DNA of 64,000 bases from a virus, in IMG/VR virus record IMGVR_UViG_3300032080_000003, positions 1 through 64,000 of that record; one strand, given 5' to 3'. The notes under the pieces were generated by a model, which saw nothing but the letters and a program-made list of their open reading frames with translations, ran no database searches and was not told the DNA's origin. This document shows, piece by piece, positions 2,945 through 56,143 of this stretch. The translations under genes were made by a program, and so were the position numbers. The first letter of the stretch is position 1, and every line of letters starts with the position of its first letter.

Positions 2945-2962
2945 TTGTATTATTCCTTCTTA

Positions 2963-4246: not shown

Positions 4247-4262
4247 TTGAGAATTCCTCTCA

Positions 4263-5314: not shown

Positions 5315-5324
5315 ATACTGCCCT

Positions 5325-6161: not shown

Positions 6162-6171
6162 ATCTTTTCCT

Positions 6172-6200
6172 TTGAAAATAAGGGGAGTATTTCATCCCCT
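6172..6200 (-). terminator. hairpin plus U-run after the major capsid gene
   Basis: Minus strand reads AGGGGA-tgaaatac-TCCCCT followed by TATTTTC. Lies between the capsid stop (6215) and the next start (6161). Confidence 0.6.
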
Positions 6201-6214
6201 ATCTTGTTTACAAC

Positions 6215-12113: not shown

Positions 12114-13224
12114 TAACCTCTATTTGCTCAATATTGTTTTTGACCTCTAACCAGCGATCTTTATTTTCTAAAGTGTTTGAAACAGAATTCCTAGCAACGC
12201 CATACAATGACGCCAAGAATTTCTGTTCTACAAAACCCGAACGCCACAATATTAAAGCTTCGACCACATCTACTAAGGAAAATATAGCCTTACTATTTAA
12301 TTTATGTTTCTTGATTCCTAGGTCTTCTATAGCTTTAGAAATCTTATCTCTGTGAGAATTCCTGTGTAACATCCAGTCTTCAATATATTCTTTTTCAATA
12401 TCGCGAATAGTCTTGCTAAGGTCTTTTTCAAGACTTTGTAAGTATTGATCAGAGTTATTATTTAGAGCTTTGACTAAATAACCAGAACAAAGAGACGGAT
12501 CAAAGCCTTCTTGGAAACGTTCGGACATAGTTCTAAAATAGCTGGCACTAAAATCTCTACCGGAGACCTTATTAACTTTTGTAGAAAAATCCTTCGGACC
12601 CGTCTTTTCTGATCGTTCCCAAAAGTCTTTAAATACATTGAAAGCCAACCAATCTTTCAGCTCACCTTTATGGCGAAAGATTGGTACATGAGAGCCTACG
12701 TTTATTAAAAAGTCTTGATAACAATCTTTTTTATAAATAAACTGTTCCATGTATTTTGTATTATTTTGCTTCCAATTAATAAGCTTCTTCTTTCTTTCAG
12801 TAATTCTTCTGGATGCCTTGATTTGCTCAAGAAGTTCCGGCGGATGGGTTACGCCAAACATCGGATTATTTTCTCCAGAGCATTGGGCACTTACCGCTTG
12901 AGAATACTCTTCTCTGAGTTTAGAATAAACTTTAGAGTTAATACCTACGTGACTATTGCCCGCAATATTATTTACCCATCTTGAACTCATGATATGGGCG
13001 GCGCGCATCAAACTTACATTGTCAGGATTTGCTTTCCACAACAACATGTGTGCTATAAAATGCTCTCTACCTGAAAACAATACAAAATTTTCAGCAGAAT
13101 CTGTTCCGCCAATACATACAGGAATAATATGGTGAGCTTCGGTATAAAAAGGTACTTTAGATTTGTTCAGACCACGAACTTTAGCTTTTTCTACAAGTGC
13201 ATTGTAAATCTTTTCGTAATTCAA
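12049..13224 (-). CDS. HNH homing endonuclease
   Basis: N-terminal motif YTEAHHIIPVCIGGTDSAENFVLFSGREHFIAHMLLW. TTG start with GGAG upstream. Inserted just upstream of the terminase gene. Confidence 0.85.
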   Translation of the reverse strand: MNYEKIYNALVEKAKVRGLNKSKVPFYTEAHHIIPVCIGGTDSAENFVLFSGREHFIAHMLLWKANPDNVSLMRAAHIMSSRWVNNIAGNSHVGINSKVYSKLREEYSQAVSAQCSGENNPMFGVTHPPELLEQIKASRRITERKKKLINWKQNNTKYMEQFIYKKDCYQDFLINVGSHVPIFRHKGELKDWLAFNVFKDFWERSEKTGPKDFSTKVNKVSGRDFSASYFRTMSERFQEGFDPSLCSGYLVKALNNNSDQYLQSLEKDLSKTIRDIEKEYIEDWMLHRNSHRDKISKAIEDLGIKKHKLNSKAIFSLVDVVEALILWRSGFVEQKFLASLYGVARNSVSNTLENKDRWLEVKNNIEQIEVSVLGKCNRTRQSPSGHVFIHP

Positions 13225-16474: not shown

Positions 16475-17134
16475 TTACAAGCTCAATGTTTCTAAATTTT
16501 GAGCAGCTTCTAATTTTATCTTTTGAATCCTTGCTTGCAGGGAATTTTCTACCCTTACATCATAGCCTTTTTCTAACTTATATCTTTCAATAGATATTTG
16601 TAAACATTCAATCTTTGCTACTTGCCACGCTTTATGTGCATCTTCTGGTGTAGAGTAGACACCCAAATACTCAAGGATAGATTTACCTTCCTTAAAAATA
16701 TTAACCGTGCTTACGAAAGGTTTTGATTTTTCATTCACCATATTCTTATCAGTTAAATAAGAAACACCCAGAGGATATTTTCCTCTAGCTTTGTCTGCGC
16801 AAATAACTACCTTATTTAGCCACTGTGGGATAAACACACAAGTATCTGGACCATATATCTTGTTGCCCGGTACTAGAATATCTTTATCTAAATCATAACC
16901 TTGCCAATGTTGATTCTCCATCCAAGATTTGAAGTTGCTAGCCCTAAGCCACTCTGGGTGAACTTCTTTATCTGCATAAACTCCCCGATCTTTTTCTTTA
17001 TACGTATCTGAGCATCGAGTTAGCATATGCTTCCATCTAAAATAGAATGGGCAACGTTCTTGTTTTCCATTAATAACGGCTGCAACAGCATAATCTAAAT
17101 CATTAATGCCTAAACCAGAAACTAATCTTGCCAA
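16475..17134 (-). CDS. homing endonuclease-like protein, family 1 (AP2-type DNA-binding region)
   Basis: Paralog of 49077..49817. Shared motifs: GIGINDxDYxV, CPFYxxWKxMxxRC, NFKxWMExQxWQG and LDKDILxPGNKxYGPDTCVF. TTG start. Confidence 0.7.
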   Translation of the reverse strand: MARLVSGLGINDLDYAVAAVINGKQERCPFYFRWKHMLTRCSDTYKEKDRGVYADKEVHPEWLRASNFKSWMENQHWQGYDLDKDILVPGNKIYGPDTCVFIPQWLNKVVICADKARGKYPLGVSYLTDKNMVNEKSKPFVSTVNIFKEGKSILEYLGVYSTPEDAHKAWQVAKIECLQISIERYKLEKGYDVRVENSLQARIQKIKLEAAQNLETLSL

Positions 17135-17272: not shown

Positions 17273-17677
17273 CTACTCTTCATTCTCATCCGGGTCAACA
17301 AAAACCAGACTAAGACGTGGTTTCAATTCAGCTGCAATCTCTTTCGGAGTCTGTTCAGCTTCTTCTTCGTCCCTCTTACCCTTTAGTCGAGCATTAAAAC
17401 TACCGAGCTCTTCTGCCGTGGCATTCTTGATAACACTTACAATAGAGTTGAGTACCCACTTGGCAGAGGCAACGCTGTCAGCATTAACATCGGTGCCCGC
17501 CAGACTTTTATCCACCAGCTGAAGCGCAATATCTTGACGCTCCAGAAGCTTATCAGCAAGTTCTCGGAGCTTGCTCTTCTTGATTCGAGTGGAAGAATTA
17601 CCCTTTTCATTCCTATTGCTTTTCTCTCCATCAAAACGTGTTGCACGTTGCGCTGGGGTATGCGGTTGTTTAGCCAT
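17273..17677 (-). CDS. hypothetical basic/acidic protein (small terminase candidate, weak)
   Basis: 134 aa with a Lys/Arg-rich N-terminus and an acidic C-terminus. First ORF after the long untranslated region. Confidence 0.55.
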   Translation of the reverse strand: MAKQPHTPAQRATRFDGEKSNRNEKGNSSTRIKKSKLRELADKLLERQDIALQLVDKSLAGTDVNADSVASAKWVLNSIVSVIKNATAEELGSFNARLKGKRDEEEAEQTPKEIAAELKPRLSLVFVDPDENEE

Positions 17678-18289: not shown

Positions 18290-18475
18290 TTATTCATATT
18301 TTGGTAAGATAGTTTTGTACATAGTTTCGTCTGGGCAAGTTATACTTTCAAACGCCCATTCATTTCTGAACACTTCCATACTATCTTCCAAATATTCTAC
18401 TTCAATTTCACAGACGCAATATCCGTCAAGCCTGCCGCACTGTGAACAAAAACTTACTTCGCCCATAGTGGACAA
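18290..18475 (-). CDS. small Cys-rich protein
   Basis: 61 aa with CSQCGRLDGYCVC, a zinc-ribbon-like pattern. Co-oriented with its neighbours. Confidence 0.55.
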   Translation of the reverse strand: MSTMGEVSFCSQCGRLDGYCVCEIEVEYLEDSMEVFRNEWAFESITCPDETMYKTILPKYE

Positions 18476-18542: not shown

Positions 18543-18806
18543 TTAATTATCAAACCCCCAGCAACTATCCCAATCATTAGCCTCAAAACAAATATAAAAA
18601 TACTGATCTAAATAGCCAGCATACTTACCTTTGTAGAATAGGACGGGGTCGTACCCAAAAGTTAAACCATCAATTTTTACTTTATTGTAATCCCACCCAG
18701 CGTTTTTACACACCCAATTAACTTCCTTTGTGTATTTCCTGATGTCTGCCCAATCTCTTTCTATAGATTCATACGCAGGTGCTTGTTCATGAAATTTATA
18801 CCTCAT
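18543..18806 (-). CDS. hypothetical protein
   Basis: 87 aa. Its start overlaps the stop of the upstream polymerase-like gene (ATGA). Confidence 0.65.
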   Translation of the reverse strand: MRYKFHEQAPAYESIERDWADIRKYTKEVNWVCKNAGWDYNKVKIDGLTFGYDPVLFYKGKYAGYLDQYFYICFEANDWDSCWGFDN

Positions 18807-20161
18807 TTCTTATCCACCTTGCAGAATGTTGTATCACCCAATACTGTTTTCCAAGCATTGATCATTGCATCATGCAAATCTTTCTCTGCTGACTCTTTCA
18901 CTAACACACTATCATGATAGGCAAGAACAGCGTGACCTTTCTCCCCCATTGCACCAACGATGTTCATCATAATCTTACTGTCAATATTCTGAAGCATAAT
19001 ACCGCCATCATTGAAGAACATGTCTCGAATAAAGTCATTATGGTCCCTGACAGCTTGCAAGACTTTACCGTAGTCGTTTGTTCCAGTCATAGCATAGAAC
19101 GACTGATCTTCTAGCTCTTTCTCACGGTCTAGCTTAACCTTGTTACCAAGTGTCCATGCTGCACTATTCATATCATCAGAATTCATACCAATGAGAATAG
19201 CAAGCTTTGCTAGCTGACGTCTTGGATTATGAGCATTTCCTGTAAATGTCTCCCAAACTGTTTTTAGTTTTTCATCAACTTGAATGAAAGATAGATCAGC
19301 ATCATAGGGAGAGAAATTCTTACCCTTCACATCGTAGATATTAAACCCATCATCATTAAGCATAAGTTGGTAACAAATACTTGGGTGAATTGCACTATAG
19401 TCAAGCTCTACAACACATTCACCATCAATCTTAAGAGAGGACGCTCGGATGTGTTGAGGCAACAACTGAACTCCACCTCCAAGCGTGTACAGACGTCCAC
19501 CTTTATCAAGATCACCAGAGAAGATACGACGATACGCAACATCAGCAATCGGCTTACCATCGAATGTAATCTGTGCACCTTCCAAACTGTTATTCATATT
19601 TCTCACCTCTGTCTTGATATCTTTAAAGCCTTTGTGACCACGTGTAGGCATCAATTCTTTTGTTTCTCTATTTCGGATGATGGCTAAGTCATTCTCTTCT
19701 AGCTCACGCCATAGGTTATAAGAAGTGTTAACGCCTTCCCACATATCTATTGTCCTCTTACGAAAGATAATACATGAGGGGATAACGTAGTCTGGTTTTG
19801 GCTTACCATTAACCATTTTCCAAGACTTAACATAGCCTTTGTAAAGATCAATATAACCCTTCTCTTCTAGAAAATCAACAAGTGATTTTACTTTTCTGTA
19901 TCCAATACCCTGTGATGACTTGGTGTATGTATTCTTATCCAGGCTAAAGATGAAACCACCAGCCTTATGTTTGATAGCACGAGCACTGTTGCTGATCCAC
20001 CATCTAACTGCCTCTTCCCATTTCTCTTCTGTATGAGCAAGCACTTGATCTACGATCTTCTTATAATACTTAGATTCATGGTAATACACGTAACTTCGTA
20101 CACATCTTAGATTGATAGAGTACACCTCTGACTCCTTCATCTTACTTAATTCATAAATCAA
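18803..20161 (-). CDS. minimal family-A polymerase / T7-type single-subunit RNA polymerase-like protein, paralog 1
   Basis: 452 aa. Ordered motifs: DLDKGGRLY (aa 217-225), VVELDYSAIHP (D254), RRQLAKLAILIGMN (K319), AYHDSVLV (D417). TTG start 6 nt after AGGAGG. Paralog of 46698..48071. Confidence 0.6.
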   Translation of the reverse strand: MIYELSKMKESEVYSINLRCVRSYVYYHESKYYKKIVDQVLAHTEEKWEEAVRWWISNSARAIKHKAGGFIFSLDKNTYTKSSQGIGYRKVKSLVDFLEEKGYIDLYKGYVKSWKMVNGKPKPDYVIPSCIIFRKRTIDMWEGVNTSYNLWRELEENDLAIIRNRETKELMPTRGHKGFKDIKTEVRNMNNSLEGAQITFDGKPIADVAYRRIFSGDLDKGGRLYTLGGGVQLLPQHIRASSLKIDGECVVELDYSAIHPSICYQLMLNDDGFNIYDVKGKNFSPYDADLSFIQVDEKLKTVWETFTGNAHNPRRQLAKLAILIGMNSDDMNSAAWTLGNKVKLDREKELEDQSFYAMTGTNDYGKVLQAVRDHNDFIRDMFFNDGGIMLQNIDSKIMMNIVGAMGEKGHAVLAYHDSVLVKESAEKDLHDAMINAWKTVLGDTTFCKVDKK

Positions 20162-42499: not shown

Positions 42500-42516
42500 G
42501 ATTATTTATCCTTTGA

Positions 42517-42936
42517 TCAATAACGTCTGTATGAAGATTCAAGTTGATGTTTTAGCTGCCTAACTTCATCCTTAAGACTAGTAATTACATTGTTCTCAAT
42601 ATCACCCTTGAATTTTTCATATAGACTTTCACACATCTTCGAGTATTCTGACATATGGATATGAACATGCATACCATAATCATCACTAACACGAAAGTAT
42701 GGTTTAAATGTTTCTGTAGAGATATCTTTAAAGTTACCTTCGATAAGATTCTTCACAACACCCTCAACACGATGGGTAATGTTGAATTCTGTGTCAGATG
42801 CAATATGCGGTAGAACGTCTGTATAGACATTACCCATTGCTTCATCCGCAATCAGCTTCATACTCTCGCGGAATTTATCAAGCTCTTGTGTAAGCTTGTT
42901 TTCAATGTATTCGTAACGCTCTTGATCAATGTTCAT
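42517..42936 (-). CDS. hypothetical protein
   Basis: 139 aa. Confidence 0.7.
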   Translation of the reverse strand: MNIDQERYEYIENKLTQELDKFRESMKLIADEAMGNVYTDVLPHIASDTEFNITHRVEGVVKNLIEGNFKDISTETFKPYFRVSDDYGMHVHIHMSEYSKMCESLYEKFKGDIENNVITSLKDEVRQLKHQLESSYRRY

Positions 42937-43172
42937 TTCAATTTCTCCATATCATCTTGAATAGCAATATCAATTAGTCGAACAAGTTCTGTACTGGCTG
43001 TCTGTGGATCAGATTGGGCCGAGAAAAATTCAAGCCAATCCTCGCTAAGCTGATCATAAGGCAACCCACTTGCCTTGATAAAGCTTGTCCAGCGAATAGC
43101 ATTCAAAGCATCTTGAAGACGATCACTTGGGCAAACTTTCTTTGTTACTGTGGCTTTCTTGGGTGTTTTCAT
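42933..43172 (-). CDS. hypothetical protein
   Basis: 79 aa. Confidence 0.65.
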   Translation of the reverse strand: MKTPKKATVTKKVCPSDRLQDALNAIRWTSFIKASGLPYDQLSEDWLEFFSAQSDPQTASTELVRLIDIAIQDDMEKLK

Positions 43173-43379
43173 TTAAACATACTCAAAATGAACAGAGTTA
43201 AACCGGCGATTACCAAATCCTTTTAGAAGTACATCTGTATTCCAATTACCAACTTTAGTTTGTTCAACAATGTAAATTGAATCAACCTTCAGATACTGTG
43301 AGGCGTAGGCGAGGTCTGATTCATAACCACCCTGACCTGTGTATTTTACTTTAGTCCCTTCTTCTGCATGGATATTCAT
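43173..43379 (-). CDS. hypothetical protein
   Basis: 68 aa. Confidence 0.65.
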   Translation of the reverse strand: MNIHAEEGTKVKYTGQGGYESDLAYASQYLKVDSIYIVEQTKVGNWNTDVLLKGFGNRRFNSVHFEYV

Positions 43380-43588
43380 TTAACTTTCTCCAGATCACTG
43401 ACCATTGGGAAAACTTGAAAAGGATGTTTTTTAGGATCCGCCAATTTCCAAATTTCTTCGCCTTTAATTTTGTATGCAATGATATCATTATCAATGTCAA
43501 CCATGTAATCTGCTGCATAAAATTCTACAGTTTCTTTCCCTCTATGAGTAGTCATATATTCAAATCCATCGTTCATTATTCTCTCCAA
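43376..43588 (-). CDS. hypothetical protein
   Basis: 70 aa. Confidence 0.6.
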   Translation of the reverse strand: MERIMNDGFEYMTTHRGKETVEFYAADYMVDIDNDIIAYKIKGEEIWKLADPKKHPFQVFPMVSDLEKVK

Positions 43589-43761
43589 TCAATTCCAAAA
43601 TTAATAGAACAAATTCTCATCAACTGCCCAAGAGATTTATTCCTGTACAATTCTTTTGTATTTTCACTCACTTGCCACACATTGTCAACAAGACATTTAG
43701 ATATTGTGTAGCCAGCTTGTGTGAGCTGAGAACGGATGTGAGCAGCGAATGTGTGGTTCAC
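43576..43761 (-). CDS. hypothetical protein
   Basis: 61 aa. Confidence 0.55.
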   Translation of the reverse strand: MNHTFAAHIRSQLTQAGYTISKCLVDNVWQVSENTKELYRNKSLGQLMRICSINFGIDWRE

Positions 43762-43952
43762 AAATCCACCATGTTAATTTCTACAAGGATTACTTCAAAA
43801 TCCTCGTCAAGAAACCAGTCTTCTCCATAAGCTTCATCCATCAACTCACAACAACCTTGCTTACTCTTATTGGCACTGAACAACATAACATCGTCATTCT
43901 GTTTGTGATGACCCATCCAATACTTTGGTGGCAAACCTTTACCTTGTTTCAT
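43758..43952 (-). CDS. hypothetical protein
   Basis: 64 aa. Confidence 0.6.
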   Translation of the reverse strand: MKQGKGLPPKYWMGHHKQNDDVMLFSANKSKQGCCELMDEAYGEDWFLDEDFEVILVEINMVDL

Positions 43953-44011
43953 CTGAATTCCCTTAGCCTCTCAAGGCTTTCTATTTGTGTATGTCTGTAT
44001 TCTATCTGAAC

Positions 44012-44058
44012 AAAAAAGCCTGCACAACACAAAGATATTAATCGTGGAGGGCAGGCTT
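44012..44058 (-). terminator. hairpin aagcctgc ... gcaggctt plus TTTTTTG
   Basis: Minus-strand U-run directly follows the 3' arm. The loop is long (27 nt). Confidence 0.45.
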
Positions 44059-44079
44059 ATAGGGAGTGACTATGAATAA

Positions 44080-44355
44080 TCAGGTGTAGCTCACCTTCTC
44101 TGTTAGCACTTGTTCAACTTTACGGGTCAATCCGGCACGAAGAACTTCACCCGAATGCCAGCCATGATCATAACTAACAAGAACACTAACTTCTGCAAAA
44201 GTATTTGTCTCAGCATTCTTGACATAGAAAGATTGCCAAGTGTCTCGGGTCAGACTCTCTTCAGTTTCATCATAAACATCGTCTGGGTTATAACCATTCT
44301 GTTCGCACCAATCAGCGAAGTCTGAATAACCATTGAAACTAAATACATTGCTCAT
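44080..44355 (-). CDS. hypothetical acidic protein
   Basis: 91 aa. Confidence 0.65.
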   Translation of the reverse strand: MSNVFSFNGYSDFADWCEQNGYNPDDVYDETEESLTRDTWQSFYVKNAETNTFAEVSVLVSYDHGWHSGEVLRAGLTRKVEQVLTEKVSYT

Positions 44356-44531
44356 TGATAATCACTCCAAAAATTTACAGATTCTGTATCCACTTCATAT
44401 GGACCTTCTGATACATGGACAAAACCCTCGGCTTCAATTTCATCAGCATATGCTTTTGCTGAATTAAAAGTCCTAAATCGATAAGGCGTGTAATATCCAT
44501 CACATCCTGTTACTACCTGAAACCATTTCAT
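44352..44531 (-). CDS. hypothetical small protein
   Basis: 59 aa. ATGA overlaps at both ends. Confidence 0.5.
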   Translation of the reverse strand: MKWFQVVTGCDGYYTPYRFRTFNSAKAYADEIEAEGFVHVSEGPYEVDTESVNFWSDYQ

Positions 44532-44758
44532 ACAAATTTCTCCTCTAGAATATCTTCAAGTTTATTAGGAAATGTGCCGCCCGAAACTTCCAACCACTCT
44601 GATTTAACTTCAAATTCACTACGATCCGAACAAACCCCAGTCACAGCAAACCAAACATAGGCTGGGATAGAATGCCCCTCATGATGCAGTTTCCCATCGA
44701 TGTAGATAGCCTCCCAATCGCCGTCAGTGTTTGTTACATAAGTTAGTGTGCTCATCAC
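44528..44758 (-). CDS. hypothetical protein (GDW..IY.D..L..EGHSI family)
   Basis: 76 aa. Shares DGDWEAIYIDGKLHHEGHSI with 45375..45509. Confidence 0.65.
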   Translation of the reverse strand: MMSTLTYVTNTDGDWEAIYIDGKLHHEGHSIPAYVWFAVTGVCSDRSEFEVKSEWLEVSGGTFPNKLEDILEEKFV

Positions 44759-44982
44759 TCTTGATTCTCCTCAATCCAAAACTGATAGTAATTACCTTTG
44801 AAGCCATGACACAACCTAATCTTGGACAAATCAGCATTAGGATTTTGAATCAACCAATGAGCAATGAAGCATTCTTGATTAGAATTTACAGCATTCATTA
44901 CTCGTTTGGTAATCTCCGCTCGGATGTCCTTTGATATGTCTTCAGCGATACAGTCCATTCTATATGTATATTCATTTGTCAT
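44755..44982 (-). CDS. hypothetical protein
   Basis: 75 aa from MTNEYTY (SD GAGGG). Confidence 0.6.
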   Translation of the reverse strand: MTNEYTYRMDCIAEDISKDIRAEITKRVMNAVNSNQECFIAHWLIQNPNADLSKIRLCHGFKGNYYQFWIEENQE

Positions 44983-45146
44983 CAACTGACCCTCAAATAC
45001 CAATCAATAATTTCATCGTCATCCTGCAAAGAATACTTCAACTCTTTATAATCGTAGTCAAGAATCTTTTTCTTCAAAAAGATAGATATTTCTTTGCCAA
45101 CATTGATTAAGAAAATCTTGGAGTAGCTCTTTCTTTTCTCTCTTTG

Positions 45147-45344
45147 TCATTTCTTATTCACCACTTCTGTGAGCCATTTATAAAACATTACAATACATAG
45201 ACACACAACACTAACAGGCCAAGTAGTAGCCATGAAAGTGAACAGTACTAAAGTGCCTGTCTCAACATAGCCAGTCTTCTTATCTATGTGGATTAGCCAG
45301 AAGAATGTGATGATTGCAACGATTGTGTATAGGGATGGGATCAT
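45147..45344 (-). CDS. small membrane protein (2 predicted TM helices)
   Basis: 65 aa with segments LYTIVAIITFFWLI and LVLFTFMATTWPVSVVCLCIVMFY. Confidence 0.6.
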   Translation of the reverse strand: MIPSLYTIVAIITFFWLIHIDKKTGYVETGTLVLFTFMATTWPVSVVCLCIVMFYKWLTEVVNKK

Positions 45345-45374
45345 TTCAATTCCTCAATCTGTTGAATGTATCAT

Positions 45375-45509
45375 TCAATACTCAGCCCAATCAAATTGTG
45401 TGATTGAATGCCCCTCTACGCACAATTCATAGTCAAGATAAATCCCTGACCAATCCCCTAATGAGCTATTGACTACAATGATTTTCTTGTAGATGCGGTG
45501 ATCGTTCAT
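45375..45509 (-). CDS. hypothetical micro-protein (GDW..IY.D..L..EGHSI family)
   Basis: 44 aa with SD GGAG. LGDWSGIYLDYELCVEGHSI is paralogous to 44528..44758. Confidence 0.5.
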   Translation of the reverse strand: MNDHRIYKKIIVVNSSLGDWSGIYLDYELCVEGHSITQFDWAEY

Positions 45510-45512
45510 TTG

Positions 45513-45767
45513 TTATTCTCCAGTAACAATCTTGAAATAATCATCAGACCACTCGACAATGTTTAGCAAATCGTGTGTAACTAAAGCGCATTTCCTATCT
45601 GAACGGTATCCAATACCAAGAGCATGTTTACCTTTCACATCGGCTCCAAAATCACAACAAGCAATACCGCCTTCATATCCTTCACAGAACATTACGTCAT
45701 CTTTGAATTCAGGGTTTATTGCAATTTTGATTTCTTTATTGGTTAGGTCGATATCATAGTTAATCAT
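45513..45767 (-). CDS. hypothetical protein
   Basis: 84 aa. Confidence 0.65.
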   Translation of the reverse strand: MINYDIDLTNKEIKIAINPEFKDDVMFCEGYEGGIACCDFGADVKGKHALGIGYRSDRKCALVTHDLLNIVEWSDDYFKIVTGE

Positions 45768-45928
45768 TCCTTTCCTCCGATAACCTTACTAACAGTAATC
45801 TCTTTAGCACACTTATAACATTTCTCAATATGCTGAGCTAAACACGGCCAGCTATCATTAAGAGGAAGTGATAGGTTGCATAAGTGTACGTATTCGTGTT
45901 TACAGAATAGCTGTTTGCATAATCTCAT
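45764..45928 (-). CDS. small Cys-rich protein
   Basis: 54 aa from MRLCKQLFCKHEY (SD GGAGG), with a CYKC pair. Confidence 0.5.
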   Translation of the reverse strand: MRLCKQLFCKHEYVHLCNLSLPLNDSWPCLAQHIEKCYKCAKEITVSKVIGGKE

Positions 45929-45944
45929 TTTAACCTCCGGTTTG

Positions 45945-46118
45945 TTAAGTTGTAGGTGACGGGCCAGGGCAAGGCTCTCTACGTAAATCTTGCGGAATAT
46001 CTTCAACCTTAATCCAATTACTCTGATGACCAAACTTATTCCAAATTGTGCCATCGTTACACAATGATGTCAAGATGAAATCAGCCTGTGTTTGCTGTGT
46101 GCATTCTTTCATTTTCAT
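45945..46118 (-). CDS. hypothetical small protein
   Basis: 57 aa. ATG lies 2 nt after the stop of the nucleotidyltransferase gene. Confidence 0.45.
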   Translation of the reverse strand: MKMKECTQQTQADFILTSLCNDGTIWNKFGHQSNWIKVEDIPQDLRREPCPGPSPTT

Positions 46119-46120
46119 TA

Positions 46121-46696
46121 TTAAATCTCCATTAAAGCTTTAGATACCAAAGAATTCTTCGCTTGGTCTGCCGTACCACAAGAGAACTTACCTTGAAAAG
46201 GTTCTTTCATTTTCTGGCCATGTTTATCAGACCAACGATAGTTTTCTTTTAAGAACATAACTCCACTTATGATAGTAAGCTTGAAATCCCGATGTAAGTG
46301 AATACCCCCAGTTTGACTGTACCAAGCTTTACAAATAGAAATGTCCATATTATCGACAACTTTAAACCGGTGTTTAGGGTCTTGCATCTCAATCAGTTGA
46401 ACTTTCATACCGTCAAGTTCGGCATTCCAAATACGTTTCAATCCCTCCATTGATTGATAAAGCCCTGATTGGGCGGGACAAACAGAGGCTTTAGCTTGAA
46501 TACCCACACGAGATAGTTGTTTTTCTGTACGAGCTACAGTTGAGGCTGTAGAACAGAAATAGAAATCAAGGTCATTAGCTTCATTTCCAAGATACCAATC
46601 TCGTGGAGCACCACCAGCAAGCACGCAGCTTGGGTCAATGATGGTGAGCATTTCGTAAACTTTGTCTGCAATCTGTTTCTGTTTTTCGATAGTCAT
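46121..46696 (-). CDS. minimal Pol-beta-superfamily nucleotidyltransferase (CCA-adding / poly(A) polymerase head-domain type)
   Basis: 191 aa from MTIEKQ. GGAPRDWYLGNEANDLDFYF matches GGxVRDxLLGxxxxDxD. ATG lies 1 nt after the stop of 46698..48071, with GGAG upstream. Confidence 0.65.
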   Translation of the reverse strand: MTIEKQKQIADKVYEMLTIIDPSCVLAGGAPRDWYLGNEANDLDFYFCSTASTVARTEKQLSRVGIQAKASVCPAQSGLYQSMEGLKRIWNAELDGMKVQLIEMQDPKHRFKVVDNMDISICKAWYSQTGGIHLHRDFKLTIISGVMFLKENYRWSDKHGQKMKEPFQGKFSCGTADQAKNSLVSKALMEI

Positions 46697-46697
46697 C

Positions 46698-48071
46698 TTA
46701 TTTCTTCTCCACATAACAAAATTTATCTGATCCCATCACTTTAAGATAGGCGTCTTTCATGTATTGTAGCGCAACACCCTCCAACTCTTCAAGGACAATC
46801 ACACTGTCATGTTCAGGTAAAAGCACTTCTCCTTGCATAATCAATTTGCTCATCACATCTGATAGAATTTCGCTATCAATATATTGAAGATGAACGCCTT
46901 GATCCTTGAAGAAATACTTTGCAATAGGGCTGTTATGGTAGGCAATAGCTTGTACAGAATGCCCGCTTCGAAATTCAAGTTCGCCCTTCTTGTCAAAGTC
47001 TGGCTCAATACCAAAGTACAGACAGTCAACCTCTTGTTCAGTCCCTCGTTTGTCATAGTCATTCTTGTAATGAGTGGTAATGTTTGTACAAGTCTTTGTG
47101 TAGGACTTCGCATTCAGTGCAATCATTACTGTACGTTTTTGAAGATTCCGCACAGGATCATAAGATGGTTTATTGTACTTAACTTTAAACCAATCAATCT
47201 TCTCTTGATCAACACTCAAGAAAGACAAGTCAGCACCATACGGGTTGTAAACCCCATTCCACTCTGTGGCAATCCAACTCTCAAGACTCTCTTTGTCTTC
47301 TTGCCACTCTTTCTCATAAAGCAAAGAGGCGTGCATAGCTTTAAAGTCCAGCTCTACAACGGCTTTACCATTAAGTTTCAATTCAGCTCTCTCCTCTTGA
47401 CTCAAGGTTTGTACACCACCAGTTGTGTTATACATGCGACCACCTAAAGTTAAACTATCAATGAACGATCTTTTATACATCTGAACAGGGAGGATATTAC
47501 CTTCATGCTCAATCTCCACTTCAGACAGTAAGTTATTAAATGTTGCCATCTGATGCCTAATATCTTTAATTCCCGAGAAACCTTTGTTACTTTTTAACTC
47601 TTTTGTCTTACGATCTTTAATCTCAACCACATTAACCACATCAATTTCATCGGATATGTCTGTACCTTGCCACAAAGACATGTATTTTTCTGTAAACACA
47701 GCGCGGCTAGTTACGACATCCATCTCTTTCCAATCTGTGATACCACCGATATAGGAAACAAGGTAATCTATATCTGTGAGTCTGTCAACAAGATAAACCA
47801 TCTTCCTGTGACTAATCTTCTGTTCATTACCTTTATAGGGTAGAAAATGACGAGGAATACACAGACCTTGGGCACCATACTTGATGGCTCTTGCTGTGTT
47901 AGTGACCAGACACCATATCTCTTTTGTATAACCCATACCTACATGATTCTCTATCTCTTCTTGTATGTGCTTATATTTATTTGTTCTGTTGTAGTGAATG
48001 TTAAAGTGAGTGCATAAGGTAAATACATTCTTCCTCTCTTCTTTATTCATAGTCCATAGCTTTAATATCAA
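46698..48071 (-). CDS. minimal family-A polymerase / T7-type single-subunit RNA polymerase-like protein, paralog 2
   Basis: 457 aa. Motifs: DSLTLGGRMY (aa 205-214), VVELDFKAMHAS (D242), RNLQKRTVMIALNA (K312; compare T7 RNAP RSVTKRSVMTLAYG), PEHDSVIV (D422). TTG start 9 nt after AGGAGG. Confidence 0.6.
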   Translation of the reverse strand: MILKLWTMNKEERKNVFTLCTHFNIHYNRTNKYKHIQEEIENHVGMGYTKEIWCLVTNTARAIKYGAQGLCIPRHFLPYKGNEQKISHRKMVYLVDRLTDIDYLVSYIGGITDWKEMDVVTSRAVFTEKYMSLWQGTDISDEIDVVNVVEIKDRKTKELKSNKGFSGIKDIRHQMATFNNLLSEVEIEHEGNILPVQMYKRSFIDSLTLGGRMYNTTGGVQTLSQEERAELKLNGKAVVELDFKAMHASLLYEKEWQEDKESLESWIATEWNGVYNPYGADLSFLSVDQEKIDWFKVKYNKPSYDPVRNLQKRTVMIALNAKSYTKTCTNITTHYKNDYDKRGTEQEVDCLYFGIEPDFDKKGELEFRSGHSVQAIAYHNSPIAKYFFKDQGVHLQYIDSEILSDVMSKLIMQGEVLLPEHDSVIVLEELEGVALQYMKDAYLKVMGSDKFCYVEKK

Positions 48072-48097
48072 TCTCTTTAACCTCCTTTAAGATATAC

Positions 48098-48124
48098 TAA
48101 TAATAATAGTAGTAATAGTAGTGA
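48098..48124. repeat. triplet-periodic tract (TAA)3(TAG)2TAA(TAG)2TGA
   Basis: Nine consecutive in-phase stop triplets on the plus strand, equivalent to (YTA)n on the minus strand. Lies in the leader/promoter of 46698..48071. Confidence 0.6.
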
Positions 48125-48140
48125 TGTAGTTAAGTTGTAA
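48112..48140 (-). promoter_or_regulatory. sigma70-type promoter TTACAA-17-TATTAC
   Basis: Minus-strand reading, about 40 nt upstream of the TTG start at 48071. Confidence 0.45.
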
Positions 48141-48162
48141 GATAGTGAATCAAATTAGGCTG

Positions 48163-48186
48163 CAAGCCCCGCAGTATAAGGGCTTG
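48163..48186 (-). terminator. 7-bp GC hairpin caagccc-N10-gggcttg (attenuator/terminator candidate)
   Basis: Lies between 48196..48390 and the polymerase-like gene. No clear U-run. Confidence 0.4.
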
Positions 48187-48195
48187 AGCTGGTTA

Positions 48196-48390
48196 CTACC
48201 CCTTCCACACCACATCATACTTAGGACACACATCAGATAGCTTCTGCATGCCCATGTAGTAGTCATTCAGCCCACCAACCAAGAAAAACATTCCCTGATT
48301 ACTCATGACAACCATCTGTCCTTCAGAAAGTTGTAGCTTCTCACCAGTGGATGCGTCAATGATTTTGAATTCCTTTTTCATTACATCCAA
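48196..48390 (-). CDS. hypothetical protein
   Basis: 64 aa. Confidence 0.65.
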   Translation of the reverse strand: MDVMKKEFKIIDASTGEKLQLSEGQMVVMSNQGMFFLVGGLNDYYMGMQKLSDVCPKYDVVWKG

Positions 48391-48626
48391 TCCTCATTGA
48401 CAGTAGCAAAACTTAAATGCCCCCAATGCTTCAGCTCGTGTAGAGCCTCGCTAATCACGTATGCTCGATAACTGTCGCGAGAACCCTCTCCCTTCAGGAA
48501 CAAGGTGATTGCCGACGCCTTAAGGGCCTCTGGAAGATCCATTTTAGCAATTTTGGCATGAGGTACGATTTCCTCCACTTTAGACCAGACGTATTCATAA
48601 GACCATTTCATAGTGCTTCTTCTCAT
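48381..48626 (-). CDS. hypothetical protein
   Basis: 81 aa, the first gene of the leftward block. Confidence 0.65.
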   Translation of the reverse strand: MRRSTMKWSYEYVWSKVEEIVPHAKIAKMDLPEALKASAITLFLKGEGSRDSYRAYVISEALHELKHWGHLSFATVNEDWM

Positions 48627-48995: not shown

Positions 48996-49076
48996 CACAC
49001 AAACCAAATCAGTGTACAAAGGATTCTACACAAATACACACAACAGCTTATGCTGAATTACTGATTGGAGAGAAGA

Positions 49077-49817
49077 ATGAAACTAAATAAAAGAACTAAG
49101 CTTATACATGGTATTGGTATTAACGACGCTGACTATAATGTAGTCAGATATGGTCTAGTTGACGACAAGAATAAAATAATCTGGCACTGCCCATTTTACG
49201 TAAAATGGAAAAGTATGGTACGAAGATGCTATTCGGAAAACTACAAAGAAAAGAAACCAAGCTACATTGGCTGCTCAGTTGTAAAAGAGTGGCATCTGTT
49301 TTCTAATTTCAAAGCTTGGATGGAAACTCAAGATTGGCAAGGTAAGCATCTTGATAAAGATATTCTATTCCCGGGTAATAAAGTATACGGTCCAGATACT
49401 TGTGTGTTTGTGGATGCTAGGATCAATCTGTTTTTAACTGAGAGTACAGCAAATAGGGGTGAGTTTCCTATAGGAGTTTATTGGGATAAAGACAGTAAGC
49501 GTTATAAAGCCCAGGGTAATAACCCCGCAACCGGTAAACGTAAGTATCTTGGACTTTTTGAAGACCCTGAGGAAGCCCACGAGGCATGGCTTACTTTCAA
49601 ACTTGAGCAAGCGTATATTCTAGCAGCAGAGCAAACAGATGAACGTGTAGCTAAGGCGTTGATTGAAAGGTATGAAAATTACACAGTTGAACCTGAACAG
49701 CTTCTTTTCAATTCAACAGGCAAAGTGGATGAGAAGTATTTGCTTACAGATGCTCAGCGGGAAGCTGAATTGGCGAAGATTGATTGTGAACATAAAACTG
49801 AACAGGAGAATGTGTGA
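49077..49817 (+). CDS. homing endonuclease-like protein, family 1 (AP2-type region)
   Basis: Paralog of 16475..17134. GVYWDKDSKRYKAQ is AP2-like. SD GGAGAG. Confidence 0.7.
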   Translation: MKLNKRTKLIHGIGINDADYNVVRYGLVDDKNKIIWHCPFYVKWKSMVRRCYSENYKEKKPSYIGCSVVKEWHLFSNFKAWMETQDWQGKHLDKDILFPGNKVYGPDTCVFVDARINLFLTESTANRGEFPIGVYWDKDSKRYKAQGNNPATGKRKYLGLFEDPEEAHEAWLTFKLEQAYILAAEQTDERVAKALIERYENYTVEPEQLLFNSTGKVDEKYLLTDAQREAELAKIDCEHKTEQENV

Positions 49818-52082: not shown

Positions 52083-53942
52083 GTGAGTAATATCAGAGAG
52101 ATTATCAGTCACTACCTAGATGTTTCGGGAGATAAGTGTTGCTGCCCTTTCCACAAAGAGCGCACTCCATCACTTAATATCTTTGATGCCACCAATTCTT
52201 TTTATTGTTTTGGTTGTGGTCAATCTGGTGATGAGATTGAATTTGTAAAAGAATACAAAGGGTTGACATTTCCCAACGCTGTAAAGGAAGTGTGTTCAAT
52301 TCTAAAACTGACTAAAGAGGAGCTTATGGAAAGTAAAGATAAAGAAAAAGTTGCTGAGAAAGTAGCTATTGAAAATGCTGAAGTTATGGATATTGAAGAG
52401 GTTAAATCCCTTATTCAATCTACAGGCTACGTTAGCAACGGATATCGTGGTATCCGAGATGAGATTAATAAATTCTTTGGTCATTTGAGTAAAGTTGATA
52501 ATCAAGGTAATGTTCTTGCTCGTTACTATCCTGAAACAAATAACAACGGTAAGTTGACAGGCTACAAATGCCGAAACACACCAAAGGACTTTAGTCACGG
52601 TAATCAAGGCATTACAGGTAGTAAAAGTCAGTTAAGTGGTCAGGTTAAGTTCAAGTCTCCGGCTAAATACGTCCTTTACGTCGGCGGTGAAGAAGACAAA
52701 GCAGCAGCTTTTCAGATGCTCAAGGATAACCGTAAGGATCAAGAGTTTGATTCCATTCCGGTTGTGAGTTCTACGGTTGGTGAATTGACAGCAGCAAAAC
52801 AAGCTGCTCAACAATACGACTGGTTTGATCAATATGATATCATCGTAATTGGTATGGATAACGATGAAGCTGGGCGAGTAGCAGCTAAAAAGATTGCTGA
52901 TGTACTCCCTAAAGAGAAAGTTCGTATTGCTACATGGTCTGGTAAAGATCCAAATCAAATGCTGATTGATGGGAAAGAGAAACAGTTTGTACGTGACTTC
53001 TACAACGCCAAGGAGTTCATCAGCAGTGGTATTTCTTCCTCCGGTGATGCTGAAGCGGGTTTGGCTGAATTCCTGACAGCACCTAAGATTGGCCTACCTC
53101 CTCAACTGAGTAAGCTTGAAGCTGCAATGCGTGGTGGTATTAAATCTACCGGATCAGTCGTGAATATCATTGGTGATACAAGTATTGGTAAGAGTTTTCT
53201 GTCTGATACCTTGATTTATCACTGGCTTTTCAATAGTCCTCGTGTACCAACTATCGTTAGCCTTGAACGTACAAAAGAAGAGTTAACAATTGATTTGTTG
53301 TCGATGCATCTTAAGAAAAACCTCATGTGGTTTACAGATGGTCACGATGCTGTTGACTATTTGAATCAGCCTGAAGTTCAGCTTCTAAAGAATAATCTAC
53401 TTTATAATGAGGTAGGTGAGCCACGGTTCTACATCATCGATGAAAGGGAAGGTGAGATTGAACTACTGAAGCGCCAGATGGAGAAAAGTGGTAAAGTCAA
53501 TGATTCTCGATTGATGGTTATTGACCCTCTCACTGACTTCTTGCGGTCCTTGGGTACGGAAGTGCAAGAAAACTTTATGATGTGGCAGAAATTGCAGAAG
53601 AAGAATGGGTTCGTGTTCATTAACATCCTGCACACCCGTAAGCCACCCACTGATAAAGATGGTAATGTACGAAAAGTAACGGAATATGATGCGTTAGGCT
53701 CCGGGACATTTATCCAGTCAGCAGACGTGAATATTGTGATCAATCGTGATAAGATGGCTAGTGATCCGATTGAAAAGAATACTACATACGTTGACATGCC
53801 AAAATGCCGTGGAGGTATCACTGGCGAGATTTGTGCGCTATACTATGACGCTGAAACTCGTCAACAGTATGATCGGGATGAGTATTTTAATAACCCAGTA
53901 GAAGAACCTCCGCAACATCATGCGGATGAGATTGATTTTTAA
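52083..53942 (+). CDS. bifunctional primase-helicase (T7 gp4-like)
   Basis: N-terminal CHC2 zinc finger CCPFHKERTPSLNIFDATNSFYCFGCG, a TOPRIM-like VIGMDNDEAG, and a C-terminal Walker A GDTSIGKSF. GTG start. Confidence 0.85.
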   Translation: MSNIREIISHYLDVSGDKCCCPFHKERTPSLNIFDATNSFYCFGCGQSGDEIEFVKEYKGLTFPNAVKEVCSILKLTKEELMESKDKEKVAEKVAIENAEVMDIEEVKSLIQSTGYVSNGYRGIRDEINKFFGHLSKVDNQGNVLARYYPETNNNGKLTGYKCRNTPKDFSHGNQGITGSKSQLSGQVKFKSPAKYVLYVGGEEDKAAAFQMLKDNRKDQEFDSIPVVSSTVGELTAAKQAAQQYDWFDQYDIIVIGMDNDEAGRVAAKKIADVLPKEKVRIATWSGKDPNQMLIDGKEKQFVRDFYNAKEFISSGISSSGDAEAGLAEFLTAPKIGLPPQLSKLEAAMRGGIKSTGSVVNIIGDTSIGKSFLSDTLIYHWLFNSPRVPTIVSLERTKEELTIDLLSMHLKKNLMWFTDGHDAVDYLNQPEVQLLKNNLLYNEVGEPRFYIIDEREGEIELLKRQMEKSGKVNDSRLMVIDPLTDFLRSLGTEVQENFMMWQKLQKKNGFVFINILHTRKPPTDKDGNVRKVTEYDALGSGTFIQSADVNIVINRDKMASDPIEKNTTYVDMPKCRGGITGEICALYYDAETRQQYDRDEYFNNPVEEPPQHHADEIDF

Positions 53943-53953: not shown

Positions 53954-56143
53954 TTGGATAAGAAGTGGTATGAATCAGATTTCATTTACGACCTTGAAAG
54001 TTACCCGAACGTATTCTCTATGAGTATTATCCATGCTTCGGGTAAGCATATGCGAGTCTTTGAGATTAGTGACCGTAAGAATGAGATTGAAGGGATTGCT
54101 AAATGTTTGCGTTATCTGGTTCAGAATAAATGTCGTATGGTAGGTTTTAATAATCTCTCATATGACTACACTCTTATCCATGAAATCATTAAGTCTTTGA
54201 AAGAAGCTAAAGAAACAGGTAAAGCTTCAAAGATCACTGCTCAAAAGCTTTACAATCTAACAACACAAATCATAACAAAGATGCAGAATTCTGATGATAA
54301 GTGGTATGGTATTAAAGAGTCCGATCATTTTATTCAGCAAGTAGATTTGTATAAGATTCACCATATGGATAATATTGCAAAGGCTACATCTTTGAAGATG
54401 CTTGAAGTGAATATGCGTTCTACTAACGTAGAGGATTTACCTTTTCCTGTTGGTAAGAAGCTTTCAAGTTCTGAGATTGATACACTTTTACACTATAACA
54501 AACACGATGTTAATGAGACATTAAAATTCTATTACTACTCCTATGAGGCAATTGAGCTACGTAAAGAATTGTCAGAAAAGTTTGGTTTCGATTGCACAAA
54601 CTCAAGTGATTCAAAGATCGGTGAAACTCTGTTTATTAATCGACTTGAGCAAGCACAGAAAGGTTTATGCTACACAACAGGGAAGTTTGGACGTAAGATT
54701 AATCAGACAAAACGAGACAGTATTCCTCTAAAAGATTGTCTGTTTAAATACTTGAAGTTTGAACGTCCAGAGTTTAAAGCTGTACATCAATGGTTGATGG
54801 GTCAAACTGTCAGTGAAACCAAAGGTGTGTTTAATGACTATGAGGAACACCAGATTGGTGAGCTTGCTAAATACGCTCAGATGAAAACCAAGAAGGTGTT
54901 GTTCAAGAATAAATTGAATCTGGATAAGAATGGTAAAGCAAAACCAGACTTTGATTTTACAGATATCAAACATCTTGAAGAACTTCAGAATCAGAAAGAG
55001 TTATTCCTTAAAGATCACCCTATGGGATTGTTTGAGGAGAAAGAAACAAAAACTTCACGTTCACACAAGATTAAAGTAAGCGGTACATACCGTGTAGTCG
55101 AGGCAATCAATACAGTTATTGATGGGAAAGTGTATGTCTACGGTACTGGTGGTATCCATATGTCTATTGAAAGTCAGACTGTACGCTCTGATGATGAATG
55201 GATGATTCTGGACGCTGATGTTACCTCGATGTACCCTTCGATTTCTATTGCAAACAATGTATATCCTGAACATTTAGGTCAAACATTCTGTAAGGTGTAT
55301 AAGGACCTGTTTAATGAACGAGGTCGATATCCTAAAGGTAGCGGTCCAAATGGTGCCATCAAGCTTGCATTGAACTCTGTGTATGGTAAGTCCAACAGTG
55401 AGTTTAGTCCGCTGTATGATCCAAAATACACACTGACAATCACGCTTAATGGTCAACTTTGCTTGTCTATGCTAGCGGAACAATTGATTGGTTTGGGTTG
55501 TCAGATGATTCAGTGCAATACAGATGGCGTTACAGCCTTGGTTCCACGTAGTAAGGAAGCTGAGTATTATGCAATCACAAAAGCTTGGGAAGAAACTGTT
55601 GGACTTAAGCTTGAGTATGCTGTATATTCAATGATGGCATTAGGGAACGTAAATAATTACGTAGCGGTGTATGCGGATGGTAAAGTAAAGAGTAAAGGTC
55701 AATATGAAGTTGCACACTTTGAGAAGCTTGGATGGTCTAAAAACCACTCTGCGATGATTGTGGCAAAAGCAGCTTTGGATTACATTGTTTATGGTATTGA
55801 TATTGAAAAGACTATTCGTGAATGTAAAGATGAATTTGACTTTTGTTTGAGAGCCAAAGTACCACGTAGTTCACAGTTGTATTTGTGCTACGAAGATGGT
55901 CGAGAGGTTCAACAACAGAATATCTGTCGATACTACCCTTCAGAACAAGGTGGTAAACTTGTTAAGCTGATGCCAGCTTTAATTGCTGGTGGTGATTGGA
56001 GGAGACTCGGACTTGATACGGAATGGACAGTAGAGACTTGTAACAATATTAAAGAGTTTGATTGGACTAAACTTAACTACAATTATTACATCAAAGAAGC
56101 ACAGAAGCTGATCAATGGTGTGGGAATAAATACTGGTGATTAA
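53954..56143 (+). CDS. family B DNA polymerase
   Basis: Exo I FIYDLESYPN, Exo II GFNNLSYDYTLI, Exo III YNKHDVNETL, motif A DADVTSMYPSI, motif B KLALNSVYGKS, motif C QCNTDGV. TTG start after AAGGAG. Confidence 0.9.
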   Translation: MDKKWYESDFIYDLESYPNVFSMSIIHASGKHMRVFEISDRKNEIEGIAKCLRYLVQNKCRMVGFNNLSYDYTLIHEIIKSLKEAKETGKASKITAQKLYNLTTQIITKMQNSDDKWYGIKESDHFIQQVDLYKIHHMDNIAKATSLKMLEVNMRSTNVEDLPFPVGKKLSSSEIDTLLHYNKHDVNETLKFYYYSYEAIELRKELSEKFGFDCTNSSDSKIGETLFINRLEQAQKGLCYTTGKFGRKINQTKRDSIPLKDCLFKYLKFERPEFKAVHQWLMGQTVSETKGVFNDYEEHQIGELAKYAQMKTKKVLFKNKLNLDKNGKAKPDFDFTDIKHLEELQNQKELFLKDHPMGLFEEKETKTSRSHKIKVSGTYRVVEAINTVIDGKVYVYGTGGIHMSIESQTVRSDDEWMILDADVTSMYPSISIANNVYPEHLGQTFCKVYKDLFNERGRYPKGSGPNGAIKLALNSVYGKSNSEFSPLYDPKYTLTITLNGQLCLSMLAEQLIGLGCQMIQCNTDGVTALVPRSKEAEYYAITKAWEETVGLKLEYAVYSMMALGNVNNYVAVYADGKVKSKGQYEVAHFEKLGWSKNHSAMIVAKAALDYIVYGIDIEKTIRECKDEFDFCLRAKVPRSSQLYLCYEDGREVQQQNICRYYPSEQGGKLVKLMPALIAGGDWRRLGLDTEWTVETCNNIKEFDWTKLNYNYYIKEAQKLINGVGINTGD

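Follow-up and report, generated by a model that had tools for sequence, protein, structure and literature searches.

Positions 46,121 to 48,071 of a 64,000-nucleotide stretch of viral DNA (positions 1 to 64,000 of IMG/VR record IMGVR_UViG_3300032080_000003; hereafter the window) raise the question of whether a polymerase-like gene and the small nucleotidyltransferase (NTase) gene directly behind it work together. A preliminary description, made from the letters alone, had proposed a dedicated two-gene unit of polymerase and tailing enzyme. The comparative evidence does not support this proposal: the NTase gene is very likely an independent cassette and not a dedicated partner of the polymerase-like gene. 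For the locus as a whole, the best explanation, and in our view a fairly probable one, is a self-contained accessory NTase cassette that functions independently of the polymerase-like protein. The window contains exactly one NTase gene and two polymerase-like genes, and the elements in question are the following.

46121..46696, minus strand: stand-alone NTase gene with a 191-residue product, MTIEKQKQ... (open reading frame (ORF) and translation, PHROG, AlphaFold2 model, Foldseek)
46698..48071, minus strand: polymerase-like paralog 2, 457 residues, TTG start at 48071, TAA end (phrog_4756, AlphaFold2, Foldseek)
18803..20161, minus strand: polymerase-like paralog 1, 452 residues, 30% identical to paralog 2 (E-value 9e-66)
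46694..46710, minus strand: gene junction, with GGAG at 46710..46707, TAA at 46700..46698, a single G at 46697 and ATG at 46696..46694

The two genes are not consistently adjacent in relatives. At six IMG/VR loci whose polymerase-like gene is an orthologue (50-89% identity), the 3-6 kb downstream contain no NTase; this includes the closest orthologues, 72-89% identical to paralog 2, and in a wider scan of polymerase-like loci 0 of 38 had an NTase within 3 kb. Viewed from the NTase, a polymerase-like gene is present within 4 kb in one (L013) of about 27 distinct IMG/VR contigs, and in one (L101, on the opposite strand) of the 37 metagenomic loci with enough flanking sequence. NTases 73%, 55% and 46% identical to the window protein have other neighbours in sister genomes. 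In phage ICP1 about 65 kb separate the two genes, and in VnaP, PhAER-4 and vB_CoeS_P1 the distance between them is tens of kb. The NTase is found in 107 Escherichia phage records, the polymerase-like gene in no Escherichia phage. The closest cultured polymerase-like gene (51% identity), from Pseudomonas phage vB_PsaM_M1, is followed by unrelated small ORFs and no NTase. The preliminary description had itself named the absence of conserved adjacency in relatives as grounds for abandoning its proposal, and this is essentially what the relatives display. A marginal NTase-like match downstream of the polymerase-like gene in contig L059 was examined separately and is spurious.

Where the same order does occur, the two genes have different histories. 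An NTase also follows a polymerase-like gene in L010 (8-nucleotide spacer) and in L013 (ATGA overlap). The NTase of L013 shares 74% identity with that of the window, and its polymerase-like gene 31-33% with either paralog; L010 and L011 have an NTase of 96% identity behind a polymerase-like gene whose C-terminal piece shows 43% identity to paralog 2 and 47% to paralog 1. Jointly inherited partners would not diverge so unequally. The same comparison bears on paralog 1, whose want of an NTase partner had been taken to suggest that the two paralogs have diverged in function: the partner is indeed missing in the window, but nothing follows from this about function, because the NTases of L010 and L013 stand behind alleles that paralog 2 matches no better than paralog 1 does. 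Sequence comparison gives no sign that the two partners diverged in step or became fused. Fusions to a polymerase-like domain are absent among the best 150 representatives of the NTase family, and its longer members (240-400 residues) have no informative Pfam domain and no polymerase-like similarity.

At the DNA level, similarity to relatives stops at the border between the genes, and the junction is therefore a recombination joint between gene modules. Homology with L015, L016, L017, L018 and L055 covers the polymerase-like gene and its leader and ends at 46693-46700. Homology with L012 and L013 covers the NTase ORF only (46696..46174 and 46699..46114), and that with L010 spans 46739..46092, starting about 40 nucleotides inside the 3' end of the polymerase-like gene. 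This 3' end encodes a conserved ...GSD.FC..EKK motif and may provide a patch for recombination, which would explain how the cassette came to stand behind three alleles without a functional link. A megablast search of 45000-49000 against phage records returned no near-identical DNA. The evidence shows phage mosaicism of a familiar sort, with an accessory cassette placed behind another gene, and not a new polymerase-plus-tailing machine.

The junction itself is as compact as first reported, with the correction that both genes, read directly from the sequence, lie on the minus strand. It reads ...GTG GAG AAG AAA TAA G ATG ACT ATC... on that strand, with the GGAG in the final codons of the polymerase-like gene, 10 nucleotides 5' of the NTase ATG. 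We prefer this start, at 46696, over an in-frame ATG at 46714, because the homologues begin with the same MTIEK (alignment of 53 sequences). The sequence signs of translational coupling are present: TAA-G-ATG, a Shine-Dalgarno element in the upstream ORF and, in a consensus scan, no terminator-like site between the genes. Coupling can be retained in that sense, but the same arrangement is found throughout the early/middle, minus-strand gene string 42517..48626, where 12 of the 17 junctions are of 4 nucleotides or less or overlapping, typically with GGAG(A) 8-10 nucleotides upstream and mostly inside the preceding gene. Paralog 1 likewise overlaps its downstream neighbour by 4 nucleotides, and at polymerase-like loci elsewhere the next ORF overlaps the stop or starts within 1 nucleotide in 25 of 38 cases, with the identity of that ORF varying. 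The tight polymerase/NTase junction is generic for the gene string and not distinctive. The flanking features are listed below.

18543..18806, minus strand: unrelated 87-residue ORF, overlapping paralog 1 by 4 nucleotides
48081..48086, minus strand: strong Shine-Dalgarno sequence AGGAGG, 8 nucleotides 5' of the TTG start of the polymerase-like gene
48157..48169, minus strand: terminator-like hairpin within the 124-nucleotide spacer 5' of the polymerase-like gene (consensus scan only)

The position of the hairpin suggests a transcription unit that would start there and run through the NTase gene. No convincing sigma-70 promoter was found upstream of the polymerase-like gene on the minus strand, promoter-like sites being no commoner there than in shuffled sequences, and an alignment of the leaders of both paralogs gave no meaningful conservation that would mark a common regulatory element. 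The spacer (48072..48195) also contains an odd AT-rich, triplet-like run, TAATAATAATAGTAGTAATAGTAGTGATGTAG on the plus strand, at about 48100..48131. A structured RNA or intron at the locus was considered and rejected, since Rfam has no match in 42000-50000; it has none in the polymerase-like gene of L010 that is interrupted by an HNH-type ORF either.

The NTase protein was correctly recognized in the preliminary description as carrying the head motif of class II CCA-adding enzymes. Its catalytic motif A, read directly and supported by conservation, occupies the following position.

46556..46615, minus strand: motif A, GGAPRDWYLGNEANDLDFYF, residues 28-47

As GGAPRDWYLGNEANDLD, this motif satisfies the class II head pattern GGxVRDxLLGxxxxDxD. 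Residues G28, G29, A30, R32, D33, W34, D42 and D44 are invariant in 53 homologues, and so are S120, C122, F138, W155, H159 and K162 further along the alignment; D157 is Asp in 37 of the 53. The protein matches phrog_10174 (E-value 2.3e-29) and phrog_1614 (E-value 6.7e-15), both labelled nucleotidyltransferase. An AlphaFold2 model, with a predicted local distance difference test (pLDDT) value of 93.6 and a predicted template modelling score of 0.88, supplied the structural check on a Pol-beta fold that had been called for: the top 42 Foldseek matches in the PDB are all class II CCA-, CC- or A-adding enzymes or bacterial poly(A) polymerase, with E-values down to 2e-6 and template modelling scores (TM-scores) of 0.42-0.59 on the query and only 0.21-0.33 on the target. 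The matched enzymes are 342-517 residues long against 191 here. Its predicted fold places the protein in the Pol-beta superfamily, as a nucleotidyltransferase of the class II CCA-adding/poly(A) polymerase type; the model indicates that the catalytic head is retained, perhaps with some of the neck, and that the body and tail domains are absent. The earlier reading that only the head is present agrees with this.

Beyond the head the likeness to class II enzymes ends. The window protein shares with them the head fold and motif A (GGxxRDxxxGxxxxDxD), whereas the body, the tail and a conserved RRD or EDxxR are missing. Sequence alignment to CCA-adding enzymes or to the PolyA_pol head domain is limited to motif A: sequence searches of the PDB, with the single protein and with profiles, aligned the NTase with CCA-adding enzymes at residues 7-46 alone (E-value 0.3), and in a local Pfam search residues 25-57 matched the PolyA_pol head below threshold (15.3 bits against a cut-off of 23, E-value 0.025). 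In class II enzymes, motif B (RRD) and motif D (EDxxR) select the ribose and the base. No conserved counterpart of either was found in the 53 homologues, positional equivalence being judged by eye. Judged by the criteria of that class II CCA-adding family itself (the Pfam threshold, RRD/EDxxR and the tRNA-binding domains) the NTase is not a member. NCBIfam and PADLOC gave nothing useful for it, a PAPS-reductase match lying far under the cut-off.

The gene belongs to a large family. A profile of the NTase searched against 1.84 billion representatives matched 1355 clusters at E-value <=1e-3 and 96 at <=1e-30, which argues against a chance ORF. The members have a median length of 199 residues and mostly stand alone. 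Homologues occur in 196 phage records, mostly Phapecoctavirus and phi92-like coliphages and Vibrio phages including ICP1, as well as some Klebsiella, Campylobacter and Aeromonas phages. The records of Phapecoctavirus and Curvibacter phages label several relatives 'tRNA nucleotidyl transferase / poly(A) polymerase'. Precomputed Pfam matches (E-value <=1e-5) assign PF26128, 'Gad2', to homologues 53-96% identical to the window protein, including P0001 (96%), P0004, P0017 and many more. The window NTase is an additional member of an annotated, functionally uncharacterised family (PHROG nucleotidyltransferase; Pfam Gad2, to judge from its homologues).

Gad2 is a 400-residue anti-Gabija protein of Bacillus phage SPbetaL7 (ORF_159), itself a predicted nucleotidyltransferase, and its knockout makes SPbetaL7 sensitive to Gabija (10.1101/2023.05.01.538930). 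We apply the label because of the precomputed PF26128 matches together with a direct pairwise comparison, for which the SPbetaL7 sequence was taken from the supplement of that paper. BLASTP aligned residues 24-138 of the NTase with 27-127 of Gad2 (E-value 4e-5, 22% identity), and hhalign aligned the NTase family profile to Gad2 with an E-value of 3.8e-5 and a probability of 71%. The two proteins have in common a Pol-beta-type NTase domain, N-terminal in Gad2, and the local patterns AGGA...ND(L/V)D(F/I)YF, K(V/L)Q(L/M)I, D(I/F)(S/T)(I/V)C and LH(R/E)DF; both are phage-borne and accessory. They differ in length (400 against 191 residues), in that Gad2 is without the RD of GGxxRD, and in that nothing of the NTase aligns to Gad2 residues 130-400, so that the full-length architecture of about 400 residues is not found here. 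By these alignments the relationship appears real but distant, and confined to the N-terminal domain. Gad2 is the only experimentally characterised relative of the family, and as of February 2026 its mode of action had yet to be resolved (PMC12904381). Identifying the substrate of the 1355-cluster family would probably also explain how Gad2 works.

Over-expression of E. coli poly(A) polymerase I is toxic through polyadenylation of tRNA. Two other small phage NTases are also toxic when over-expressed, the 182-residue Gp22 of Klebsiella phage fHe-Kpn01 (PMC7291057) and gp22 of Pseudomonas phage Emajogi (10.64898/2026.09.15.751885), and this agrees with promiscuous tailing of host RNAs. Together with gp28 of Pectobacterium phage PP47 and gp083 of phAPEC8, they resemble the window protein as stand-alone CCA-type heads of about 180-200 residues. 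These four genes are located in or beside the replication block, whereas the window copy lies behind a polymerase-like paralog. Only phAPEC8 gp083 is a demonstrated homologue (33% identity, E-value 1e-16); the Autographiviridae proteins are likened to the window NTase by size and CCA-type head, not by alignment.

Replication genes are in fact the usual company of the family. A DnaB-type helicase or primase-helicase, a DNA polymerase, or both lie within 4 kb of the NTase at 18 of 37 metagenomic loci, and the same is true of about 18 of 34 loci on viral contigs and elsewhere, some of which are not independent of one another. By our own estimate, 10-30% of a phage genome is within 4 kb of helicase or DNA polymerase genes. 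The enrichment is moderate, recurs in several unrelated gene orders and is not corrected for kinship. Published maps of Pectobacterium T7-like phages also place the gene between helicase and DNA polymerase (PMC7693777). Representative arrangements are listed here.

L046: DNA polymerase (614 residues) at 2045..3889, then NTase at 3899..4522, with a 9-nucleotide spacer
L039: helicase, 170-residue ORF, NTase at 3986..4630, DNA polymerase at 4634..6571, with a 3-nucleotide spacer
L033: helicase, 172-residue ORF, NTase, 173-residue ORF, DNA polymerase
phAPEC8: primase/helicase ... DNA polymerase I, three small ORFs, NTase
Curvibacter phage P26059A and contigs L005 and L014: NTase, (HNH or small ORF), primase/helicase, DNA polymerase
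P26059A in full: NTase, HNH, primase/helicase, HNH, DNA polymerase
ICP1 and VnaP: DNA ligase 1-2 kb upstream of the NTase

By contrast with this habitual place in replication modules, which points to nucleic-acid ends and not to tRNA repair, tRNA genes lie within 4 kb at 5 of 31 NTase loci, and none was found in the 64-kb window. The replication-gene setting may stem from a function at nucleic-acid ends while DNA is being replicated; just as well, it may come from the tendency of accessory and anti-defence genes to lie in the middle-gene block. A tRNA-Arg(UCU) gene is located within about 4 kb of the NTase in five of the more distant loci, L030, L045, L046, L047 and L049, upstream in four of them and downstream in L030, and no other tRNA was seen near any NTase locus.

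In the account that we favour, that of a self-contained accessory cassette, modular recombination would have put the NTase gene behind one polymerase-like allele, where it would be co-transcribed with the upstream gene while its product acts without the polymerase-like protein. The enzyme would use a nucleoside triphosphate and add nucleotides template-independently to the 3'-OH of a nucleic acid. Analogy to all the close structural matches makes RNA or tRNA the likeliest substrate; a DNA or primer end is possible, given the replication-gene setting in other phages. Its role would lie in host nucleic-acid takeover or in counter-defence, as for Gad2, and not in essential phage functions. Whether the protein is an active nucleic-acid 3'-end nucleotidyltransferase at all, as its model and these analogies suggest, appears to us evenly balanced. 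Several observations weigh against this account or parts of it. D118, in the place of the third catalytic carboxylate, is not strictly kept (Asp in 37 and Ser in 16 of the 53 homologues), and position 100 is Gln. The PolyA_pol head match stays below threshold in the local Pfam search for the NTase and three homologues alike (E-values 0.015-0.025), and the local Pfam copy reports PF26128 for none of these four proteins. Gad2 is only weakly similar (22% identity across some 115 residues, probability 71%), and its C-terminal 260 or so residues are unmatched. The NTase stands directly behind three different polymerase-like alleles in the window, L010 and L013, and often abuts true family A DNA polymerases elsewhere (L046, L039), which makes a looser tie to polymerases possible.

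Such a tie is taken furthest by the coupled machine of the preliminary description, in which the polymerase synthesises and the NTase tails or primes, or the two jointly serve tRNA repair or anti-defence. The stop and start 1 nucleotide apart, the Shine-Dalgarno element in the upstream gene without a terminator between, the same order in L010 and L013, and NTases adjoining family A polymerases in L046 and L039 all speak for it, yet it is the least probable of the readings weighed here. Orthologues at 72-89% identity have no NTase, nor does any of the 38 polymerase-like loci; NTases 73% and 55% identical are placed elsewhere in sister genomes; identities within the pair are uncoupled (74% against 31% in L013, 96% against 43% in L010); homology breaks at the gene border in an operon where tight junctions are usual; and there are no fusion proteins, while more than 100 phage records have the NTase without the polymerase-like gene. 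A further reading treats the family as a general phage replication accessory acting at polymerase substrates, with a facultative polymerase partnership. We regard it as improbable. Were it true, the enzyme might for instance place untemplated (ribo)nucleotides on DNA or primer 3' ends and either hide these from end-sensing defences such as Gabija or supply a family A-type polymerase, and the adjacency to the polymerase-like paralog here and to true family A DNA polymerases in unrelated podovirus-like contigs would be a real facultative partnership.

The two remaining alternatives concern the NTase by itself. It could be a miniature tRNA CCA-adding or repair enzyme, serving phage tRNAs without an encoded CCA or acting against CCA trimming by host nucleases. 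In its favour, CCA-adding enzymes, several of them tRNA-bound, lead the structural matches, motif A is close to canonical, and relatives are annotated as tRNA nucleotidyl transferases; against this, the body and tail that hold the tRNA are absent (191 against 342-517 residues), RRD and EDxxR are unconserved with H159 and K162 invariant instead, the sequence likeness is limited to residues 7-46 at an E-value of 0.3, and with no tRNA gene in the window and tRNA genes near 5 of 31 loci, the usual neighbours are replication genes. This leaves a miniature CCA enzyme unlikely. Less so, if still on the doubtful side, is a role equivalent to that of Gad2, with NTase-dependent inhibition of Gabija (GajAB) or of another defence that senses DNA ends, a reading compatible with the accessory cassette. 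PF26128 matches on close homologues, alignment to the NTase domain of the validated Gad2 and the Gabija-sensitive SPbetaL7 knockout (10.1101/2023.05.01.538930) point that way, as does a patchy, cassette-like spread in a hypervariable region, which is usual for anti-defence genes. Yet about 115 residues align at 22% identity, and the missing C-terminal part of about 260 residues, over half of Gad2, may hold the target specificity. Moreover, there is no PADLOC match or other match related to defence, and a family as broad as 1355 clusters is unlikely to have one common target.

The upstream protein is polymerase-like, as first described. Paralog 2 matches phrog_4756, which has no assigned function, with an E-value of 5e-71. 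Pfam (DNA_pol_A included), NCBIfam and PADLOC have no match to it, and PDB sequence searches with the single protein and with a 46-sequence profile returned nothing real, matches to SKP1 being noise. The AlphaFold2 model of paralog 2 (pLDDT 92.7) gave 110 Foldseek matches in the PDB at E-value <=1e-3; the 50 among the matches listed are all family A DNA polymerases, including Aquifex Pol I, apicoplast apPOL, Taq, Bst, T7 gp5 and Pol theta. TM-scores to these are low (0.22-0.34), as expected because domain orientations differ. Against BFVD, paralog 2 matches uncharacterised proteins of 400-450 residues from Aeromonas and other phages at TM-scores of 0.7-0.8, with lower-ranked matches mainly to viral proteins annotated as DNA polymerase. 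Three stretches, ELDFKAMH, RNLQK...N and EHDS, can be read as polymerase motifs A, B and C.

47331..47360, minus strand: motif A-like VVELDFKAMH, residues 238-247, with D242 and H247 invariant in 46 members
47112..47150, minus strand: motif B-like RNLQKRTVMIALN, residues 308-320, with R308 and K312 invariant and N320 nearly so (inferred assignment)
46794..46814, minus strand: motif C-like EHDSVIV, residues 420-426, with H421 and D422 invariant in 46 members

Paralog 2 has in common with family A polymerases (Pol I, T7 gp5, apPOL, Pol theta) the fold of the polymerase domain, an Asp at the motif A and motif C positions and an R...K at motif B, and differs from them in its 457 residues, the missing exonuclease domain and the missing Pfam DNA_pol_A match. 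Presumably His replaces the Glu at position +5 of motif A, and N320 occupies what we take, from the motif spacing, to be the place of the conserved family A Tyr in motif B. The predicted structure is a family A DNA polymerase-like fold in minimal form, lacking an exonuclease domain, and the model and the conserved residues indicate that the protein is probably catalytically active. As a phage-specific minimal family A polymerase-like family with intact catalytic residues, phrog_4756 is worth study on its own account. A separate replicative polymerase is encoded at 53954..56143 besides the two paralogs; that these are recent copies of it was considered and rejected, since hhalign aligned 14 columns at motif A with a probability of 0.2.

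Polymerase-like genes vary among relatives in their presence and surroundings. The sister genome IMGVR_UViG_3300032004_000002 (L012/L004 and L067; 84.7 kb) has a paralog-1-type gene, no polymerase-like gene within 6 kb of its NTase and no second copy in the 38-locus scan. Paralog 2 itself may be accessory and variably present. In L059, a homologue of the window 87-residue ORF 18543..18806 is located at 4916..5200, about 570 nucleotides downstream of a paralog-2-type gene, and homologues of window ORFs 18290..18475 and 17273..17677 are found in the same area. Different types of polymerase-like alleles thus occupy one genomic slot across phages. Homing endonucleases usually target conserved, important genes. 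In L010 (Logan SRR25078848; positions 1..931) a 236-residue HNH-type ORF (40..750) splits the polymerase-like gene just ahead of its conserved motif C region (IDSxI...HDS); the gene's C-terminal piece continues at about 737..928, and the contig ends before the N-terminal part of the gene.

The phage itself can be placed by its other genes. PHROG matches in the window include terminase, portal, head protease, major head, tail sheath and tail fibre proteins, and for replication a primase/helicase (52083..53942) and the DNA polymerase (53954..56143). This gene set, the related contigs of 82-92 kb and the relative vB_PsaM_M1, which is classified in Ounavirinae, indicate that the window is part of a FelixO1-like myovirus. 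The replicative polymerase, on the plus strand, matches phrog_1252 (E-value 2.5e-178), has no Pfam match and carries DADVTSMYPS, resembling the DxxSLYPS of family B. The homologue in P26059A bears the annotation 'DNA polymerase B'; there, and in L005 and L014, HNH genes split or flank the region.

This lineage is rich in homing endonucleases, as a phrog_655 ORF in the window and the HNH genes in relatives show, and they may drive the mosaicism around the NTase locus. The phrog_655 ORF (12049..13224, minus strand) encodes 391 residues and overlaps the start of the large terminase gene region. Two further ORFs, 49065..49817 (plus strand) and 16475..17134 (minus strand), encode paralogous proteins of 250 and 219 residues with similar N-termini (..GIGINDxDY..), and the former has a weak AP2-domain match (E-value 2e-4). 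Both are probably homing endonucleases of the HNH/AP2 type, and each polymerase-like locus region has one of them beside it.

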